Sequence record: OR896838.1
Length of the DNA stretch: 44,740 bases
Reading direction: 5' to 3' (one strand)
From: Escherichia phage McMelon
Under the pieces are notes generated by a model. That model made no database searches. It was not told where the DNA came from and was given only the letters and a program-made list of their open reading frames with translations. Below, in pieces: positions 23,832 through 44,740 of the stretch. Position numbers and translations under genes: made by a program. Each line of letters opens with the position of its first letter. Positions within the stretch are counted from its first letter, which is position 1.

Positions 23832-24386
23832 TTATTTAAGTGCGCCAGTCACCAGTGTTTTTTCCATGTTACGGAAATCTTCCTGCGTCATGCAGATTTT
23901 CGATCCGTCTTCGCCGGCGAGCACGACCATAGGCTGGACGTCTTGCGCTACAACCCCAAAATCGTGGGCCTTCACCGTCTTGCCGAACGAGGCCACCGTA
24001 TCTTCTGCAACGCGAATTGCGTCGTTATACGCATTAATCTCACCGTCAAGACGTACGGACAGCCCTTTGAGGCTGCCGTATTGCGCTGCCGTTGTATCGA
24101 TCTGAATCTCGTCATGCCCGGTAATGTAAGACTCACCCAGCAGTGCGGCATATGCTACCAGGTCCACGATGTTATCTTCCTGGTGCTTACGGTGCTGGCG
24201 CACCAGCTTCAGGCAGATCAGGAAGGTCCAGGCTTCTTGCTCGGTAAGGTTGCGCCCGGTAAGCGCGTTAAACACGGCGGCGACCTGTTTAGCGCTGCGT
24301 TCGTCTTTCGCGTTGTCATAGCCGTTTTCTTTCCCGCGCTGTTCCATAGTGGTGGCGGCGTTTTTGCAGTATTCGTATGCTTTCAT
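23832..24386 (-). CDS. hypothetical protein
   Basis: 184 aa, strong RBS AAAGGAGA; no confident domain assignment. Confidence 0.55.
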   Translation of the reverse strand: MKAYEYCKNAATTMEQRGKENGYDNAKDERSAKQVAAVFNALTGRNLTEQEAWTFLICLKLVRQHRKHQEDNIVDLVAYAALLGESYITGHDEIQIDTTAAQYGSLKGLSVRLDGEINAYNDAIRVAEDTVASFGKTVKAHDFGVVAQDVQPMVVLAGEDGSKICMTQEDFRNMEKTLVTGALK

Positions 24387-24756: not shown

Positions 24757-24785
24757 AATATAGTTGGTTGCATTATTGGTTGCAA
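24757..24785 (-). promoter_or_regulatory. sigma70-like promoter (TTGCAA-17-TATATT)
   Basis: Minus-strand TTGCAA, 17-nt spacer containing AATGCAACCAA, then TATATT; same family as 5247, 26426 and 39364. Confidence 0.45.
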
Positions 24786-25243
24786 GTGAATTTTGCAAGA
24801 TTCACAGAATAAATATGCGGGACCAGTTCTTCACACGCCCGTTTGATGGCGGCGATGTTCTTCGCGCAGTCGTCAATGATGACCAGTTCGTTAACTTCTG
24901 CATAGCACACCAGGCCAAATACGGAACGGGCCTTGTACTCTGGAGGCGGCGTGTCATCAAGCATATGGCGTAAGAACAGACGACCTTTCGGGAATCTATC
25001 CAATTGCTCTTTCGTTGACTCCCAGCAATCTGACTGGCGGTTTGACAGGTACGCAATGTCGAAGCCCTGTTTAGCGTACATGCGCAATAACGGCAGCATG
25101 TCATAATTAATGTCTTCGCGGACGTGGGCCTTATGCCACTTCGCCCAAAACGTTGATTTAGTCTTGATCCCCGGAACTAGGTCGTCGCGCACACTGCTTG
25201 ACCCGTTGATAACGCCATCTAAATCGCAAATCAGTAGTTTCAT
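24773..25243 (-). CDS. HAD-superfamily phosphatase (nucleotidase / PNK 3'-phosphatase-like)
   Basis: 156 aa; N-terminal ICDLDGV matches HAD motif I (DxDG[TV]); later IIDD acidic motif. Confidence 0.6.
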   Translation of the reverse strand: MKLLICDLDGVINGSSSVRDDLVPGIKTKSTFWAKWHKAHVREDINYDMLPLLRMYAKQGFDIAYLSNRQSDCWESTKEQLDRFPKGRLFLRHMLDDTPPPEYKARSVFGLVCYAEVNELVIIDDCAKNIAAIKRACEELVPHIYSVNLAKFTCNQ

Positions 25244-25461: not shown

Positions 25462-25954
25462 TTAATTCACCTTCGCTCATTATTTCGATTTGTGCGCTGC
25501 CGTTTGGCGGCACTTCGTCAAAGATTATCAACTGCTGGCACTTGTTATTGCTCGGCCCGACTTCACCGGTTACAGCGTGTATAAATCGGATACGCCAGTC
25601 CAGAAGAATTATCAGGTTTGCAGTCTTCCGGGCCAACCGCGCCCACTTCGTCGACGTGTCCTGATTCAGCAGCATGACAGTCCGGCGTCCGTGCGCTGCA
25701 CACTCGACCCACGGCAGCGGATCGGAATACGGCGGGTTGCACCACTTCCACCCTTTCAACTCTGACCAGTCCACATCGAGCGCGCTGTGCTCTGCCGTGA
25801 AGTAACGCGGTAGCAGGTGGTTGGCGTCGCTTGCCGCCATATCGTAACGGAATCGGTATTTCCGTCGAAGCGGTTTAAATAAAGCTGGCGGCGTGCGCCA
25901 GCTATCTTTTTGCTCACTCTCCGTCATTCTGCGGGTCCAGTGCGTATAGGGCAA
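25418..25954 (-). CDS. DNA N6-adenine methyltransferase (phage Dam-like)
   Basis: 178 aa; WRTPP near N-terminus, DMAAS and catalytic NPPY motifs; alternative start at 25927. Confidence 0.75.
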   Translation of the reverse strand: MPYTHWTRRMTESEQKDSWRTPPALFKPLRRKYRFRYDMAASDANHLLPRYFTAEHSALDVDWSELKGWKWCNPPYSDPLPWVECAAHGRRTVMLLNQDTSTKWARLARKTANLIILLDWRIRFIHAVTGEVGPSNNKCQQLIIFDEVPPNGSAQIEIMSEGELNEYLSRRPKSSRRG

Positions 25955-26378
25955 TTTTCTCTTTACTGTTTAGCACACGCCGGACTCGGGCCGTATCCGC
26001 CGGACCAAGAGGTCGGCAATCGGAATAGTAGCTGCCGTTTGTGGGATTGCGCCACGCCACAAGCACCAGGTCTTTACGGTCGATCTTAGACTGGCGGCCC
26101 TTCGGACGCACGTACTCCTCGGCGCGTTTACAATGTTCACGCAGACCTTCGGCAGTGATGCGGTTTAGTGCCACGCTGGTGGTGTATCCGGTGCGCTGCA
26201 TAATACCCATCAACTCGAAAAGCAGTTCGAAGCGTTCCTCTAACTCCTGGCGCACTTTCTTCTCTCCTTCATATAGCGCCTTGTTGGTGTCCGCCACCGC
26301 GTTCGCCCGTTCGGCCTGTTCACGGGCTTCTAGGCATTGCGCGGCCCAGTATGCCTTTTCTTCTTGTAAAATTCTCAT
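25914..26378 (-). CDS. hypothetical protein
   Basis: 154 aa, RBS GGAGA, helical N-terminal half. Confidence 0.5.
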   Translation of the reverse strand: MRILQEEKAYWAAQCLEAREQAERANAVADTNKALYEGEKKVRQELEERFELLFELMGIMQRTGYTTSVALNRITAEGLREHCKRAEEYVRPKGRQSKIDRKDLVLVAWRNPTNGSYYSDCRPLGPADTARVRRVLNSKEKIALYALDPQNDGE

Positions 26379-29861: not shown

Positions 29862-32153
29862 TTACTTCCTGTACCGGTACATGATGTCGCCTTCGGCGGC
29901 AAGTGGGAAACCTTTCGCCCATATAGGCAGGTCGCACATCAGCGCGCAAAGCTCATCGGTCGTGTAGTCGTCGGTGTCTGGCACTTCGGTGATCAATTCA
30001 TCGTGCACTGACAGGACGATTTCATAGCCCGCAGCCTCAACGCCAGGCATGGACCATGCGAGAATATCGCGGCACAACGCCTGTACGATGTTCTCCGTAA
30101 GTTTGCCGCCGTAGGTGTACTGGAATCCCCACTGGCGCGTCGTCTGATTCTCGCCCTGGTATTTGATGCGGGTGCTGGTGCGCTTCTTGCCGGTGTCTTC
30201 GTCGATCTCGGTAGTGACAGACAGCGCGATGCCGGGGTAGCTCATGATGCGCCCTGACGGCAACTCAACCTTCAGCCACCGGCCCGCCGCGTTCGGGTCG
30301 TCGCGCTCATCGTCGAATGTCGGGTCGTGCTTCGCCTTCGTGCGAACAATTTTGAGCGCTTTCTTGCCATCAGGGCGAACGTTCGCGCCAGCCCAGTATG
30401 CCTTACCCGGATTACGGATCGCACATAACACCGCTTCCTCAAGCTCGGCCCAAAAGGCTACGGTCTTCGGGTGAGACTCACGCCACATACGTTTGATCGC
30501 GTCGCATGTCAACCACACGTTTTTAGGCAGTATGTAGGTTGGGCGCTCGTCTTTCTTGCCAGGCTTCGGCGGGCGCTTCGCTTCGTTGATGCGGGCAAAC
30601 TCATAACCGCGTTTAGCCGCCGCCCAAATGTGATCCGGGAATGTCCCCTTCATGACGTCCGCCATTGCGTACAGGTCGAGGCCCAGGTTTTTAGCGAACT
30701 GCAAGAACGCCGCGACGCCGCCACCATAGCCCAGCCCCAATTCGCACGCCTTACCGATCTGGCGCAAGTCTTTGCGGTTGGCTTTAATGTAGTCCGGGTC
30801 AAGGCCAAACATCTTACCGGCAGTCTCACAATAGATATCGCGACCGGCCTTAAACACCATTAGCGCGGTTTTCTCGCCTGCGATCCAGGCAAGTCCACGC
30901 CCTTCCACGTTGGAGTAGTCCGCTACGACAAACTTCTTGCCCTTAGCCGGGATAATGCACCCGCGAACGGTCGAGGCTGTTAGCTTAGATATGTCATACG
31001 CCCAGTGCGCGGTCCCGCGTAACAGGGAATTGATGCCGTTGGTGAGCATGTGCGACCGGACCCAAAAAGCAACGTCGCTCTCGCCTTCGCGGCGCTTAAT
31101 CTTCCCTTCGTGATCGTCGCTATACTCGCCGCGTGCCAGGTTTTGAGGCTGGAAGCCTTTACCCGCCCAGCGCAGCGTGCGCTTTGCGCCACCATACTGA
31201 AGACACCCACGGCGGCGACCGTCAGCAGACAGGCCATTAACGAGCGGATTGTACTTAGTCGATGCCGTTGATGACGCACCGAGGCGCATTTCGATAAGCG
31301 CTTTGCCTTCGTCGGGGAAGTCCGGGTCTTCAAGCAGGTCGTTAAGTGTGGATTTCTGCGCGTTGTGGATCGTGAACGCCGGGGCGATATCACGCAGGAT
31401 TGGCAGGAAGTCATTGCCGGTCAGCTTACCGCCAAATCGCTCCCAGGCTTCCTCCTTCAATTCTTCCTTATGCGCCTGCACCGCTTTGATCGCGGCGTTC
31501 GCCAGGTCAACGTCCACATAGAAGCCGCGGTCGTTGATCAACTGGTCAATAAGCAGTATCTCGTCTTCCTTCGGAGTATTACCCCAGTCCGGTATGCGCC
31601 AGTAGACCTCACGCATCGCGATAATATCCAGCGCTGCATATCGCAGAAATTTGGCCCATTCTTCAGGGTGAGTCTCGCGCGTGTAGCGGCGTATTTTGTA
31701 GGTCTTAGGGGTAGGCTTACAGAATCGTTTGATCAGCGCCTTGCCTGCCTTATCCTTCGCGTGCTCTGCGTCAACGCCCAACACCTGACACTGCATATCG
31801 AGGCTACCCGGCAGCGCGTGGCGAAAGGCCATAATCATTGTGTCTTCGATCTGGCTTACCGGCAGGTCAATACCCCACTTCTCGCGGATAACCAGGCGGT
31901 CAAACAGGAGGCCGTTAGCCATCACTATTTTTGCTTTCTTGCGGGAAACATGGCGGAGCGCCTTGCGCAGTTCACGCGGCATTGTGGGGGATTCAGTGCA
32001 ATCCCATGTCTGCACGCGGCCCTCGTCGATGGCGTATGTGCAAATCATAATCTCGGTGGTTGGGTGCTCTGCGTAGGCGTACGCCCCAACCTTCTTTAGG
32101 TCCACCCCGCTAAATGTCTCGGTGTCGAGAAACAGACGTTCGAAGTCTTTCAT
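29862..32153 (-). CDS. DNA polymerase I (family A) with N-terminal 3'-5' exonuclease domain
   Basis: 763 aa; N-terminal exo motif LFLDTETF; polymerase motif C VHDELITEV. Confidence 0.9.
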   Translation of the reverse strand: MKDFERLFLDTETFSGVDLKKVGAYAYAEHPTTEIMICTYAIDEGRVQTWDCTESPTMPRELRKALRHVSRKKAKIVMANGLLFDRLVIREKWGIDLPVSQIEDTMIMAFRHALPGSLDMQCQVLGVDAEHAKDKAGKALIKRFCKPTPKTYKIRRYTRETHPEEWAKFLRYAALDIIAMREVYWRIPDWGNTPKEDEILLIDQLINDRGFYVDVDLANAAIKAVQAHKEELKEEAWERFGGKLTGNDFLPILRDIAPAFTIHNAQKSTLNDLLEDPDFPDEGKALIEMRLGASSTASTKYNPLVNGLSADGRRRGCLQYGGAKRTLRWAGKGFQPQNLARGEYSDDHEGKIKRREGESDVAFWVRSHMLTNGINSLLRGTAHWAYDISKLTASTVRGCIIPAKGKKFVVADYSNVEGRGLAWIAGEKTALMVFKAGRDIYCETAGKMFGLDPDYIKANRKDLRQIGKACELGLGYGGGVAAFLQFAKNLGLDLYAMADVMKGTFPDHIWAAAKRGYEFARINEAKRPPKPGKKDERPTYILPKNVWLTCDAIKRMWRESHPKTVAFWAELEEAVLCAIRNPGKAYWAGANVRPDGKKALKIVRTKAKHDPTFDDERDDPNAAGRWLKVELPSGRIMSYPGIALSVTTEIDEDTGKKRTSTRIKYQGENQTTRQWGFQYTYGGKLTENIVQALCRDILAWSMPGVEAAGYEIVLSVHDELITEVPDTDDYTTDELCALMCDLPIWAKGFPLAAEGDIMYRYRK

Positions 32154-42489: not shown

Positions 42490-42517
42490 TAAGCCCGGAA
42501 TTAACCGGGCTTTTTAT
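42490..42517 (+). terminator. rho-independent terminator
   Basis: AAGCCCGG-aattaa-CCGGGCTT hairpin followed by TTTTATT. Confidence 0.7.
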
Positions 42518-42520
42518 TGC

Positions 42521-42550
42521 TTGACTCGCAACCAACATAGGGGCCATACT
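42521..42550 (+). promoter_or_regulatory. candidate promoter (TTGACT-18-CATACT)
   Basis: Directly after terminator; followed by GCAACCAATCAAC motif and strong RBS. Confidence 0.35.
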
Positions 42551-42579: not shown

Positions 42580-42660
42580 ATGGCACGTAAAGATATTTGG
42601 GTATTAGCGATCTGGACCACCGCGGCTTTTATCGGCATGGTTATTTGCGAATTGATATAG
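42580..42660 (+). CDS. very small hydrophobic peptide (26 aa)
   Basis: Strong SD AGAGGAG 8 nt before ATG; MARKDIWVLAIWTTAAFIGMVICELI looks like a single TM helix. Confidence 0.25.
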   Translation: MARKDIWVLAIWTTAAFIGMVICELI

Positions 42661-42721: not shown

Positions 42722-43864
42722 ATGCACCCGCAAACTAAAATCACCGACGAGCAATTGATCGCTGAAGTGCAATCAGGCACTACCCCGAAAGATATTGCGA
42801 AGAAGTACGGTCTTTCCCTCCGAAATGTCTACATGCGAAAAGCCCGCCTGTCGAAGAAAGGGATTGGTCACGGCAACGATGCCGTAATCCGTAAGCGCGT
42901 TGCCGATGGCTTCGGTGTTAAGCGCGTATCCGCCCTGGTGCGCGGCAATGGCGAAGAGGTCATGTCGTGGGTTATCACTGAGCAGGACAAGGAGCGCCAG
43001 CTTGAAGCAATGCGCGCCGTTGTCGAGGGTATGAACAGCGAAATCACACCGGCAGCGCCCGTAAACGCCCCGCCAGTACCGGTCCATGCACTGGACCTAC
43101 TCAACCTGTACACCGTGTCCGACTTCCACCTGGGCATGTTGGCCTGGGGCGAGGAGACTGGCGAAGACTGGGATATGGCGATTGCAGAAGACCTGTTTTA
43201 CCGCTGGTTTGTCGAAGCCTTCGCACGCGCACCGGACGCAGGCACTGCCGTAATTAATATCCTCGGTGATATGGCGCATTTTGATAGCCTTGATGCGGTC
43301 ACCCCAGCCAGCGGGCACGTACTGGACGCGGATACCCGCTACCAGAAACTGGTCCGCTACATGATTCGCATGGTGCGCAACGTGGTAGACCTGGCACTGC
43401 AAAAACACCACAAAGTCAAACTTCTAATCGTCCAGGGGAATCATGACGAATCGGGCATGATTTGGCTGGCTGAAATGTTCAACACCCTGTACGAGAACGA
43501 GCCGCGCGTCGATGTGGATACGTCCCCGGACGTATACAAAATGGTGCAACACGGCAAGACCACGCTGTTCTTCCACCACGGGCACAAAGCGCGCTTCGAT
43601 GCTATTGAAACCGTAATGATTTCCAAATTCAGACAGGCGTTCGGGTCCAGCGAGTACAGCTACGCGCATGTAGGCCACTTGCACCACCAGAAGATTGTAG
43701 AATCCCGCAACATGATTGTTGAACAACACCGGACCCTCGCCGCGAAAGACGCATATGCCAGCCGCGGCGGTTGGATGTCCGGTCGTAGCGCCAACGTAAT
43801 AACCTACAGCGCCAACTACGGCGAAGTAGCGCGCTTAACCATTAGCCCGGAAATGTTGAAATGA
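42722..43864 (+). CDS. HTH domain fused to calcineurin-like metallophosphoesterase
   Basis: 380 aa; N-terminal HTH (TPKDIAKKYGLSLRNVYMRKA); phosphoesterase motifs DFHLG, GDMAHFD, GNHDE, HHGH, GHLHH. Confidence 0.6.
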   Translation: MHPQTKITDEQLIAEVQSGTTPKDIAKKYGLSLRNVYMRKARLSKKGIGHGNDAVIRKRVADGFGVKRVSALVRGNGEEVMSWVITEQDKERQLEAMRAVVEGMNSEITPAAPVNAPPVPVHALDLLNLYTVSDFHLGMLAWGEETGEDWDMAIAEDLFYRWFVEAFARAPDAGTAVINILGDMAHFDSLDAVTPASGHVLDADTRYQKLVRYMIRMVRNVVDLALQKHHKVKLLIVQGNHDESGMIWLAEMFNTLYENEPRVDVDTSPDVYKMVQHGKTTLFFHHGHKARFDAIETVMISKFRQAFGSSEYSYAHVGHLHHQKIVESRNMIVEQHRTLAAKDAYASRGGWMSGRSANVITYSANYGEVARLTISPEMLK

Positions 43865-44073
43865 TTAGACAAGTATTCATGAGCACGCAGGCTGACCGCC
43901 TGAAGGAATTACGCAAACAACTCGAAGGCTTGCGCCGATTCGAACGAACGGCAGCGGCTATAGGCATGTCTATCAGCGAGCGGATCGAGATACTATCGCA
44001 AATACGCTACACAGAAGGCGCTATAAGCGAAGTAGAAAGCATGTTAACCCGATACTACGGTCGCCACGTTTAA
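43861..44073 (+). CDS. hypothetical protein
   Basis: 70 aa, start overlaps upstream stop (ATGA); helical. Confidence 0.4.
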   Translation: MIRQVFMSTQADRLKELRKQLEGLRRFERTAAAIGMSISERIEILSQIRYTEGAISEVESMLTRYYGRHV

Positions 44074-44079
44074 CCCTCC

Positions 44080-44107
44080 TAGCCCGCCGATTTGGTGGGC
44101 TTTTTTG
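44080..44107 (+). terminator. rho-independent terminator
   Basis: AGCCCGCC-gatttg-GTGGGCT hairpin (one G-T wobble) followed by TTTTTT. Confidence 0.65.
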
Positions 44108-44111
44108 TGCC

Positions 44112-44120
44112 TGTTATAAT
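44112..44120 (+). promoter_or_regulatory. candidate extended -10 promoter (TGtTATAAT) upstream of TerS
   Basis: Perfect TATAAT preceded by TGn; 70 nt upstream of the TerS ATG. Confidence 0.35.
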
Positions 44121-44189: not shown

Positions 44190-44740
44190 ATGGCAGAAAT
44201 TAAAGTTAAGGGCCGACGCGCCAAACTGGACGGACGAGTAGCAGTAACCCCGCGCCGTAAACCAGGCGAGCAAACCGAGCATACCAATCTCGGACCTGAA
44301 ATCGAGTACGGAAAGCGCCGTAAAGGCGGCAAATGTGGACGCCCTACTGACTACCGATCCGTTTACTGCGACCAGCTTCGCCGCTATTTTGCCGACGCCG
44401 ACGCCTGGCGGGTCAACTACTCCGATAAAGGCGCTGCGCAAGTAATCCCCCGGAACAAAATGCCAACCTTCGGCCGATTTGCCGCTGAAATCGGCGTGGG
44501 CGTAGCTTGCTTGTATCGCTGGGCGCGTGCGCATGAGGAGTTTGCCGAGGCGATGGCGGACGCTATGGAGTTGCAGAAAACTTTCCTGATGGAAGCCGGT
44601 GGCGTGACCATCGCGGCAGGCTTCGCTACGTTCCTGCTTAAAGCAAACCACGGCGTCCGCGACGATGTGCCGCTGGATGACGACGAAGATGATAACGGCG
44701 ACGTCGTAGTGGAACCTACCGGCAAAGGCCAGGGTGAATA
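44190..44740 (+). CDS. terS: terminase small subunit (3' end at window edge)
   Basis: ORF open to the last base (183 codons plus TA); HTH-like FGRFAAEIGVGVACLYRWARAHEEF; acidic C-terminus; base 1 of the window would complete the stop. Confidence 0.6.
   Translation, partial: MAEIKVKGRRAKLDGRVAVTPRRKPGEQTEHTNLGPEIEYGKRRKGGKCGRPTDYRSVYCDQLRRYFADADAWRVNYSDKGAAQVIPRNKMPTFGRFAAEIGVGVACLYRWARAHEEFAEAMADAMELQKTFLMEAGGVTIAAGFATFLLKANHGVRDDVPLDDDEDDNGDVVVEPTGKGQGE

Follow-up and report, generated by a model that had tools for sequence, protein, structure and literature searches.

A helix-turn-helix metallophosphoesterase of Escherichia phage McMelon as a candidate nuclease of phage DNA metabolism

The genome of Escherichia phage McMelon (OR896838.1) encodes, on the plus strand at 42722..43864, a protein of 380 residues that reads from ATG to stop and joins an N-terminal helix-turn-helix (HTH) domain to a calcineurin-like metallophosphoesterase (MPE) domain. 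What might a virulent phage do with an enzyme built in this way? All positions given here refer to the window, the whole stretch of 44,740 nucleotides that was analyzed, which is the complete genome written from the TerL start codon onward. In our reading the HTH-MPE protein is probably, though by no means certainly, a DNA nuclease of phage DNA metabolism. The nuclease assignment is drawn from an intact and constrained active site, from fold neighbors belonging to the nuclease clade and from an HTH of DNA-binding type, and the role in DNA metabolism from linkage of the gene, in several lineages, to genes of DNA metabolism and nucleotide supply. It is in this sense that we infer its DNA substrate, nuclease activity and biological role.

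The original prediction had described five MPE motifs and an N-terminal HTH in this gene, and both descriptions hold, the HTH being present in a confident structural model. The motifs DFHLG (residues 134-138, 43121-43135), GDMAHFD (182-188, 43265-43285), GNHDE (239-243, 43436-43450), HHGH (285-288, 43574-43585) and GHLHH (318-322, 43673-43687), all on the plus strand, keep the canonical MPE order (DxH, GD, GNH[D/E], H, GHxH) and comprise the ligands of a binuclear metal site. Loss of metal-ligand residues, which would have spoken against an MPE, is not seen: when aligned, all 54 relatives with 32-47% identity carry the ligands D134, H136, D183, N240, H286 and H321 as well as the catalytic H241. 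G182, D188, T194 and G318 are likewise invariant, and H186, H285, H288 and H319 are each conserved in at least 93% of the same sequences. The invariant T194 falls in a family-specific insert, VTPxSGHxLDxDxR (residues 193-206), located between motifs II and III.

The gene is under strong purifying selection. Its dN/dS against four Dhillonviruses is 0.02-0.04, and within the MPE domain the same comparisons yield 0-2 amino-acid changes alongside 27-48 synonymous ones. This constraint, together with a full-length match to the PHROG 704 family, shows that the open reading frame (ORF) is not a chance one. Catalytic activity of the enzyme is almost certain.

A model that AlphaFold2 produced from the alignment of 54 sequences (mean pLDDT 89.6, pTM 0.79) divides the protein into four parts, a linker among them. 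A bundle of three helices (residues 9-17, 22-29 and 33-45) makes up the N-terminal HTH domain (residues 1-50, 42722..42871) and is followed by a poorly ordered linker. The middle module (residues 64-107, 42911..43042) is modeled as a long β-hairpin (64-73 and 79-88) with a helix of about 17 residues next to it (90-105); its consensus is GF.vKG.STL..G....W.K, in which G77 (93%) and W83 (96%) are nearly invariant. No recognizable counterpart of this hairpin-helix module was found among solved structures. The MPE α/β-sandwich (residues 126-380, 43097..43861) ends the protein, with nothing C-terminal of it and hence no capping domain.

Comparison with known structures places the modeled MPE domain closest to nucleases, with fold scores of 16.0 for the PolD DP1 3'-5' exonuclease and 15.1 for both S. 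aureus SbcD and T. maritima Mre11; other Mre11/SbcD entries score 12.4-13.4. Foldseek concurs, ranking T. maritima Mre11 first and PolD DP1 next. Lower scores are obtained for GpdQ (12.1), a P. putida nuclease MPE (9.4) and the PPP phosphatases (8.9-9.4). Motif I, SDFHLG, takes the same form as SDWHLG of E. coli SbcD, unlike GDLHG of λ NinI, and the PPP signatures GDxHG, GDxVDRG and GNHE are absent from the McMelon protein. It is thus not a phosphatase of the λ NinI type, an assignment that the original prediction had named as a refutation.

The fold comparison also bears on a second function that had been raised, namely that of a cyclic (oligo)nucleotide phosphodiesterase destroying the second messengers of CBASS, Pycsar or type III CRISPR systems. 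The score of the cyclic nucleotide monophosphate (cNMP) phosphodiesterase Rv0805, 12.2, lies below the 15-16 of the nuclease clade, and no similarity to the class III cNMP phosphodiesterases (CpdA/Rv0805) was detected above that to other MPE branches. A DNA-binding HTH would have no role in such an enzyme. PADLOC returned no match for the protein, and no link to it was found in the anti-defense literature; moreover, a persistent core gene tied to DNA metabolism differs from anti-defense genes, which are usually variable and accessory. This function hence appears highly improbable. The anti-Tmn gene known from Dhillonviruses is a different one, encoding a small rod-shaped protein (PMC11846954).

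The N-terminal domain is best read, from model and sequence together, as a DNA-binding HTH of the resolvase/LuxR/σ region 4 class. Its fold scores are 5.6-6.6 for LuxR/NarL-type regulators, 6.0 for the DNA-binding domain of GcrA, 5.7 for that of a small terminase and ~5.5 for σ region 4. Pfam HTH models reach only E ~0.1 on the McMelon protein as a single sequence; the family profile matches GerE within the PDB sequence set (E 0.005), and individual relatives match Sigma70_r4_2 (11 of 54, best 1.5e-9), GerE (6, best 2.4e-8), HTH_1, HTH_8 and other HTH models.

As this HTH class is that of transcription activators, the protein might primarily be a transcription factor, whose σ4/LuxR-type HTH switches promoters of the phage or its host, for instance at the late-gene transition, with the MPE as a sensor or accessory. 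Several GenBank records indeed name a transcriptional regulator, the gene lies at the boundary ahead of the structural operon, and moonlighting is known for phage MPEs, Bxb1 gp47 being also a recombination directionality factor (RDF). However, the same HTH fold is used by resolvases, transposases and small terminases, and other lineages do not keep the gene ahead of the late genes. Moreover, the catalytic residues are all invariant, and the MPE is the most constrained part of the protein, with a mean column conservation of 0.54 as compared with 0.37 for the HTH. We therefore regard a primarily regulatory function as quite unlikely. Of the three functions that the original prediction had left side by side, the nuclease is thus favored, and the regulator and the cyclic-nucleotide phosphodiesterase are not.

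If the protein is a DNA nuclease, its HTH, possibly helped by the β-hairpin/helix module, would hold the enzyme on double-stranded DNA. The C-terminal MPE would then hydrolyze phosphodiester bonds by means of two Mn2+/Mg2+-type ions held by D134, H136, D183, N240, H286, H319 and H321, with H241 as the catalytic histidine. Such an enzyme would share the fold and motif flavor of the Mre11/SbcD/PolD-DP1 clade while dispensing with the capping domain and acting independently of Rad50. Its most likely job would be the breakdown of host or other non-phage DNA, feeding the salvage of deoxynucleoside monophosphates (dNMPs), with the processing of replication or recombination intermediates as a close second. 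The role would lie in DNA metabolism rather than in packaging.

Several observations weigh against a nuclease assignment. The fold margin is modest, as the non-nuclease LpxH scores 13.9 and MJ0936 13.6 against the 15-16 of the best nucleases. Sequence comparison assigns the MPE domain to no characterized branch: hhalign of its family profile with SbcD and CpdA of E. coli, λ NinI and Bxb1 gp47 gave local motif matches only, with a probability below 6% for all four, and phmmer found no match for the MPE domain among PDB sequences. The protein has no match at E<=0.01 to phrog_100, the SbcD-like family to which E. coli SbcD belongs, and none to phrog_221, the family of Bxb1 gp47 (E 2e-115). The name 'DNA repair exonuclease' attached to PHROG 704 is an annotation transferred by homology, and a literature search found no biochemical or genetic study of any member of the family. 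In addition, recombination in McMelon is already served by a PD-(D/E)XK nuclease and a gp2.5-like annealing protein, so that a second nuclease is not obviously needed, and its HTH-MPE gene adjoins no replication gene.

Searches in other collections added little. NCBIfam gave noise-level matches only (UhpA, E 0.059; PdeM, a ligase-associated endonuclease, E 0.14). A phmmer match to designed armadillo-repeat proteins (4rv1, E 3e-6) was rejected as a repeat-summed artefact in which no single domain is significant. Neither the curated annotation of the near-identical Bas15 genome nor the window ORFs examined contain a Rad50/SbcC- or SMC-like gene. The McMelon protein would work at best like an Mre11-type nuclease; it is not a member of the Mre11 family.

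The original prediction had regarded the fusion of an HTH with an MPE as unusual. It is not, because this is the normal architecture of a common family. The McMelon protein matches the PHROG 704 'DNA repair exonuclease' profile with E 8.7e-161, residues 5-380 aligning to profile positions 2-390 of 390, and reads as a near-identical ortholog within a very large, already catalogued family. Megablast retrieves the gene from more than 150 Dhillonvirus genomes, in which its DNA is 94-97% identical; Sodalis phage SO-1 (gp58) is among them. A tblastn search of 50,697 phage records detects homologs in 2,006 (~4%), spanning Dhillonvirus, Guernseyvirinae (~75% identity), Drexlerviridae including T1 (gp16, ~45%), Webervirus, and phages of Vibrio, Rhodobacter, Ralstonia, Aeromonas and Campylobacter; the matches in T1-like phages, at ~45% identity, extend across 98-99% of the length. 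In Drexlerviridae the gene is persistent in 508 of 522 genomes, as reported in a 2026 paper (PMC13164509). When 1.84 billion representatives were searched exhaustively, 4,664 clusters (50% identity) matched at E<=1e-3, and 1,137 at E<=1e-30; the architecture is mostly the same, lengths are mostly 370-420 residues, and the N-terminal part is covered by many of the alignments.

Annotation of this family is inconsistent. Its members are variously labeled 'DNA repair exonuclease', 'phosphoesterase', 'transcriptional regulator', 'oxidoreductase', 'sigma-70 region 4 protein' and 'winged HTH protein', and even among the Dhillonvirus megablast matches the labels include phosphoesterase, DNA repair exonuclease, transcriptional regulator, HTH LuxR-type and hypothetical. 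The Pfam MPE models Metallophos and Metallophos_2 score below their gathering thresholds on the McMelon protein (22.9 versus 27 bits and 20.1 versus 21.5), which reflects a divergent branch in which fold and motifs are intact. The BASEL papers are silent on the gene.

The neighborhoods of the gene in relatives offer a second view of its function. In T1 it lies downstream of genes for a helicase and Dam and ahead of an HNH gene and the lysis cassette, ~32 kb from TerS, and SRT8 has a T1-like arrangement. In Kagunavirus and Webervirus it heads an operon consisting of the MPE, a 'polynucleotide kinase' with a HAD_PNKP-type 3'-phosphatase domain, and an 'ATP-binding protein'/dNMP kinase, the Kagunavirus gene being embedded among tail genes. 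The gene of Rhodobacter phage RcMcDreamy comes after the lysis genes, facing a methylase and ThyX. Metagenomic relatives adjoin DEAD or SNF2 helicases, DnaB-primase, PolA or a 5'-3' exonuclease. A HAD_PNKP-type 3'-phosphatase and a dNMP kinase are the genes that most often follow it in Drexlerviridae, a pattern read as nucleotide supply (PMC13164509).

Frequent proximity to a gene labeled 'polynucleotide kinase' can be explained differently, if the protein is a nucleic-acid end-healing phosphoesterase that removes 3'-phosphates or 2',3'-cyclic phosphates, or trims damaged DNA or RNA ends, and that acts with the HAD phosphatase and kinase in repairing breaks made by host defense nucleases. Binuclear MPE domains perform end healing in bacterial Pnkp, and the weak NCBIfam match to PdeM points in the same direction. 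Yet the 'polynucleotide kinase' genes of T1, K1ind1 and Webervirus carry a HAD_PNKP 3'-phosphatase domain only (E 1e-17 to 1e-20; L015 5122-5607, L019 6035-6649, L018 4948-5478), so the 3'-phosphatase is already supplied; a kinase domain is absent, and the common label of these phosphatase-only genes is a misnomer. The P-loop neighbor, which is the next gene in K1ind1 and Webervirus, is a strong match to dNMP kinases (phrog_139, E 1e-46 to 1e-49) and not a polynucleotide 5'-kinase. An idea we had entertained, that the neighbor is a kinase-only enzyme for which the MPE supplies the 3'-phosphatase, is reversed by the same matches and was dropped. The MPE of bacterial Pnkp is, furthermore, λ-phosphatase-like, which the McMelon protein is not. 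No convincing ligase was found: a 153-residue ORF on the minus strand (25914-26378) matches phrog_10530 'DNA ligase' (E 2.6e-90), a label that is doubtful because the ORF is too small for a ligase and has no Pfam domain. End healing is thus unlikely.

In McMelon itself, a gene of the same HAD phosphatase family (phrog_415, E 4e-30) is present at 24773-25243 on the minus strand and does not stand beside the MPE gene. Pfam sees only a weak HAD likeness in its product (Acid_phosphat_B, E 1.5e-4); in Bas15 the ortholog is labeled 'putative phosphatase'. Near it, at 23832-24386 (minus strand), is a gene for a DUF6378 protein (phrog_474) labeled 'phosphofructokinase'. Bxb1 gp49, two genes from the gp47 MPE (L024 6961-7515), has 'phosphofructokinase' as its product label as well; co-occurrence of MPE and DUF6378 genes may recur in unrelated phages. 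Homing-type HNH genes stand directly beside the MPE gene in T1 (L018 42028-42510) and Vibrio phage 91E33-1 (L017 6010-6519), a homing endonuclease is annotated under the tblastn match in Salmonella phage S102, and in Shigella phage 2019SD1 a partial match is split over two places. This suggests that the MPE gene is a recurrent homing target or is at times interrupted.

A further alternative is a trans-acting proofreading 3'-5' exonuclease for the phage polymerase, as has been proposed for Bxb1 gp47 and as PolD DP1 acts. T1-like phages, however, carry the gene yet have no annotated DNA polymerase, and in McMelon it is unlinked to the polymerase gene. The McMelon family A DNA polymerase (29862-32153, minus strand, 762 residues) shows a Pfam polymerase domain only, matched at residues 392-481. 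Pfam recognizes no 3'-5' exonuclease domain in its ~390 N-terminal residues, but these unassigned residues may still hold one. A proofreading function is accordingly very unlikely.

The remaining alternative concerns the terminase. The original prediction had placed the gene just upstream of the terminase genes, which is literally true, yet a 70-residue ORF, a terminator and a promoter-like element intervene before TerS. TerS itself (183 residues, 44190..44740, plus strand; phrog_3064 terminase, E 7e-73) has its stop codon completed by base 1 of the window, which is the A of the TerL ATG (TerL, 1-1386). The functional link implied by this proximity does not stand, as relatives from T1-like phages, weberviruses, Kagunavirus, a Rhodobacter phage and metagenomes have the gene in other places; its position beside the terminase is lineage-specific and incidental. 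A terminase-linked function was rejected on this non-conserved synteny and on the intervening terminator. To the more specific proposal, an accessory packaging nuclease that helps terminase cut at pac like the HNH proteins beside some terminases, we give the slightest chance of all: between the gene and TerS stand a conserved terminator and a separate promoter-like element, which isolate it, and its distance from TerS in T1, its position among tail genes in Kagunavirus and its place beside helicases elsewhere argue against it.

The elements around the gene point to a putative self-contained transcription unit bracketed by terminators. Upstream, a terminator-like hairpin at 42491..42512 (plus strand; 8 bp stem with 6 GC pairs, then TTTTTATT) putatively ends the transcript of the lysis genes. 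Its stem is a perfect palindrome, reads as a terminator on the minus strand too, and is invariant in five Dhillonviruses, whereas the loop is inverted in McMelon (GGAATTAACC) relative to four relatives (GGTTAATTCC). It is followed by a sigma-70-like promoter candidate at 42521..42550 (plus strand; TTGACT, 18 nt spacer, CATACT; 9/12 matches). Both hexamers are kept in 4 of 5 Dhillonviruses, SO-1 having CATACG; promoter-like sites are no more numerous than in shuffles. Between this candidate and the HTH-MPE gene lies a putative hydrophobic ORF of 26 residues, MARKDIWVLAIWTTAAFIGMVICELI (42580..42660, plus strand), with the Shine-Dalgarno sequence GAGAGGAG. It is likewise kept in 4 of 5 Dhillonviruses, the SO-1 copy being truncated by a 45-bp deletion; it has no PHROG match and is unannotated in the relatives examined.

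Downstream, the ATG of the 70-residue ORF (43861..44073, plus strand; gp59-like, phrog_20931) overlaps the MPE stop codon as ATGA, an arrangement compatible with translational coupling. PaulFeyerabend (Bas15) lacks ~200 bp containing this ORF, the gap falling precisely between the MPE stop codon and the terminator (L013 44405-44550). The ORF thus behaves as a moron-type insertion, and the clean indel rules it out as an obligate partner of the MPE. The unit is closed by a strong intrinsic terminator at 44081..44101 (plus strand; 9 bp stem with 6 GC pairs, then TTTTTTGTG), which is essentially invariant in relatives, including Bas15, where the 70-residue ORF is missing. Directly after it, 70 nt before TerS, an extended -10 element, TGTTATAAT (44112..44120, plus strand), is invariant in all four aligned phages and probably drives TerS, TerL and the structural genes as their promoter. 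These local elements are conserved among Dhillonviruses, except for the 70-residue ORF.

Among the conserved gene families of virulent enterobacterial siphoviruses that still await an experimentally assigned function, PHROG 704 is one of the largest. Many of the phages that carry it (T1-like, Jersey-like, Dhillonvirus, Webervirus) are candidates for therapy or are notorious as contaminants in the laboratory. Degradation of host DNA by a core enzyme would bear on the nucleotide supply of small phages and also on transduction risk, because breakdown of host DNA limits generalized transduction. The classical host-DNA-degradation function of T1, 'gene 2.5', which is not known to have been sequenced, might correspond to the PHROG 704 gene; a search on T1 host-DNA-degradation genetics in the literature available found nothing. 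It is tempting to go further and hypothesize that PHROG 704 forms a new functional class, in which Rad50-independent Mre11-like nucleases with an HTH and a β-hairpin/helix module in place of Rad50 and the capping domain underlie host-chromosome degradation and nucleotide recycling in T1-, Jersey- and Dhillon-like virulent siphoviruses. We consider this broader proposal rather unlikely as it stands. Proof of an HTH-guided host-DNA nuclease of this kind would count as a modest but useful advance. Its HTH might favor host DNA over phage DNA modified by Dam/Dcm.

How, then, does the McMelon protein compare with systems already described? With respect to other PHROG 704 members (T1 gp16/ST16, SO-1 gp58, K1ind1 gp21, SRT8 gp76), nothing essential differs, as all share the three-part architecture and the motifs. 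Identity to the McMelon protein is 95-98% in Dhillonvirus orthologs and decreases to ~75% in Guernseyvirinae and ~45% in T1-like phages. What varies is the place of the gene, which in Dhillonviruses comes after the lysis cassette and before TerS, and in Drexlerviridae before the lysis cassette.

Differences from Mre11/SbcD and PolD DP1 are more pronounced. The McMelon protein ends at the MPE sandwich, whereas Mre11/SbcD nucleases have a C-terminal capping domain that adjoins the active site, and the accessory domains of Mre11 and DP1 are replaced by the N-terminal HTH and the hairpin-helix module. They are also partnered by Rad50/SbcC or DP2, neither of which was found in the McMelon/Bas15 genome, and outside the motifs sequence likeness to them is undetectable. 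λ NinI (Nin221), a PPP Ser/Thr phosphatase, shares the superfamily fold and the binuclear metal centre, but carries GDLHG and GDLVDRG, unlike the McMelon protein.

The MPEs of cluster A mycobacteriophages are the only stand-alone phage MPEs with experimental data. A10ZJ24 gp48, a homolog of Bxb1 gp47, is a phosphodiesterase that breaks down DNA in vitro, whether linear, plasmid or genomic, and the host genome in vivo, blunting the expression of host defenses (PMC12287305). Bxb1 gp47 additionally serves as an RDF, a role irrelevant for a virulent phage that has no integrase. In the Bxb1 RefSeq record (NC_002656; L024 5876-6788) the RDF label is attached to the 46-residue gp46, and the literature names the adjacent MPE, gp47; the label is probably shifted by one gene. 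The cluster A proteins belong to phrog_221 and not phrog_704 (hhalign probability 5.6%), comprise ~255 residues with neither HTH nor hairpin module, and in Bxb1 gp47 have DTQ as motif I where the McMelon protein has DxH. Because they represent a different sequence family and have no HTH, the cluster A enzymes offer a functional analogy to the McMelon protein rather than an orthology.

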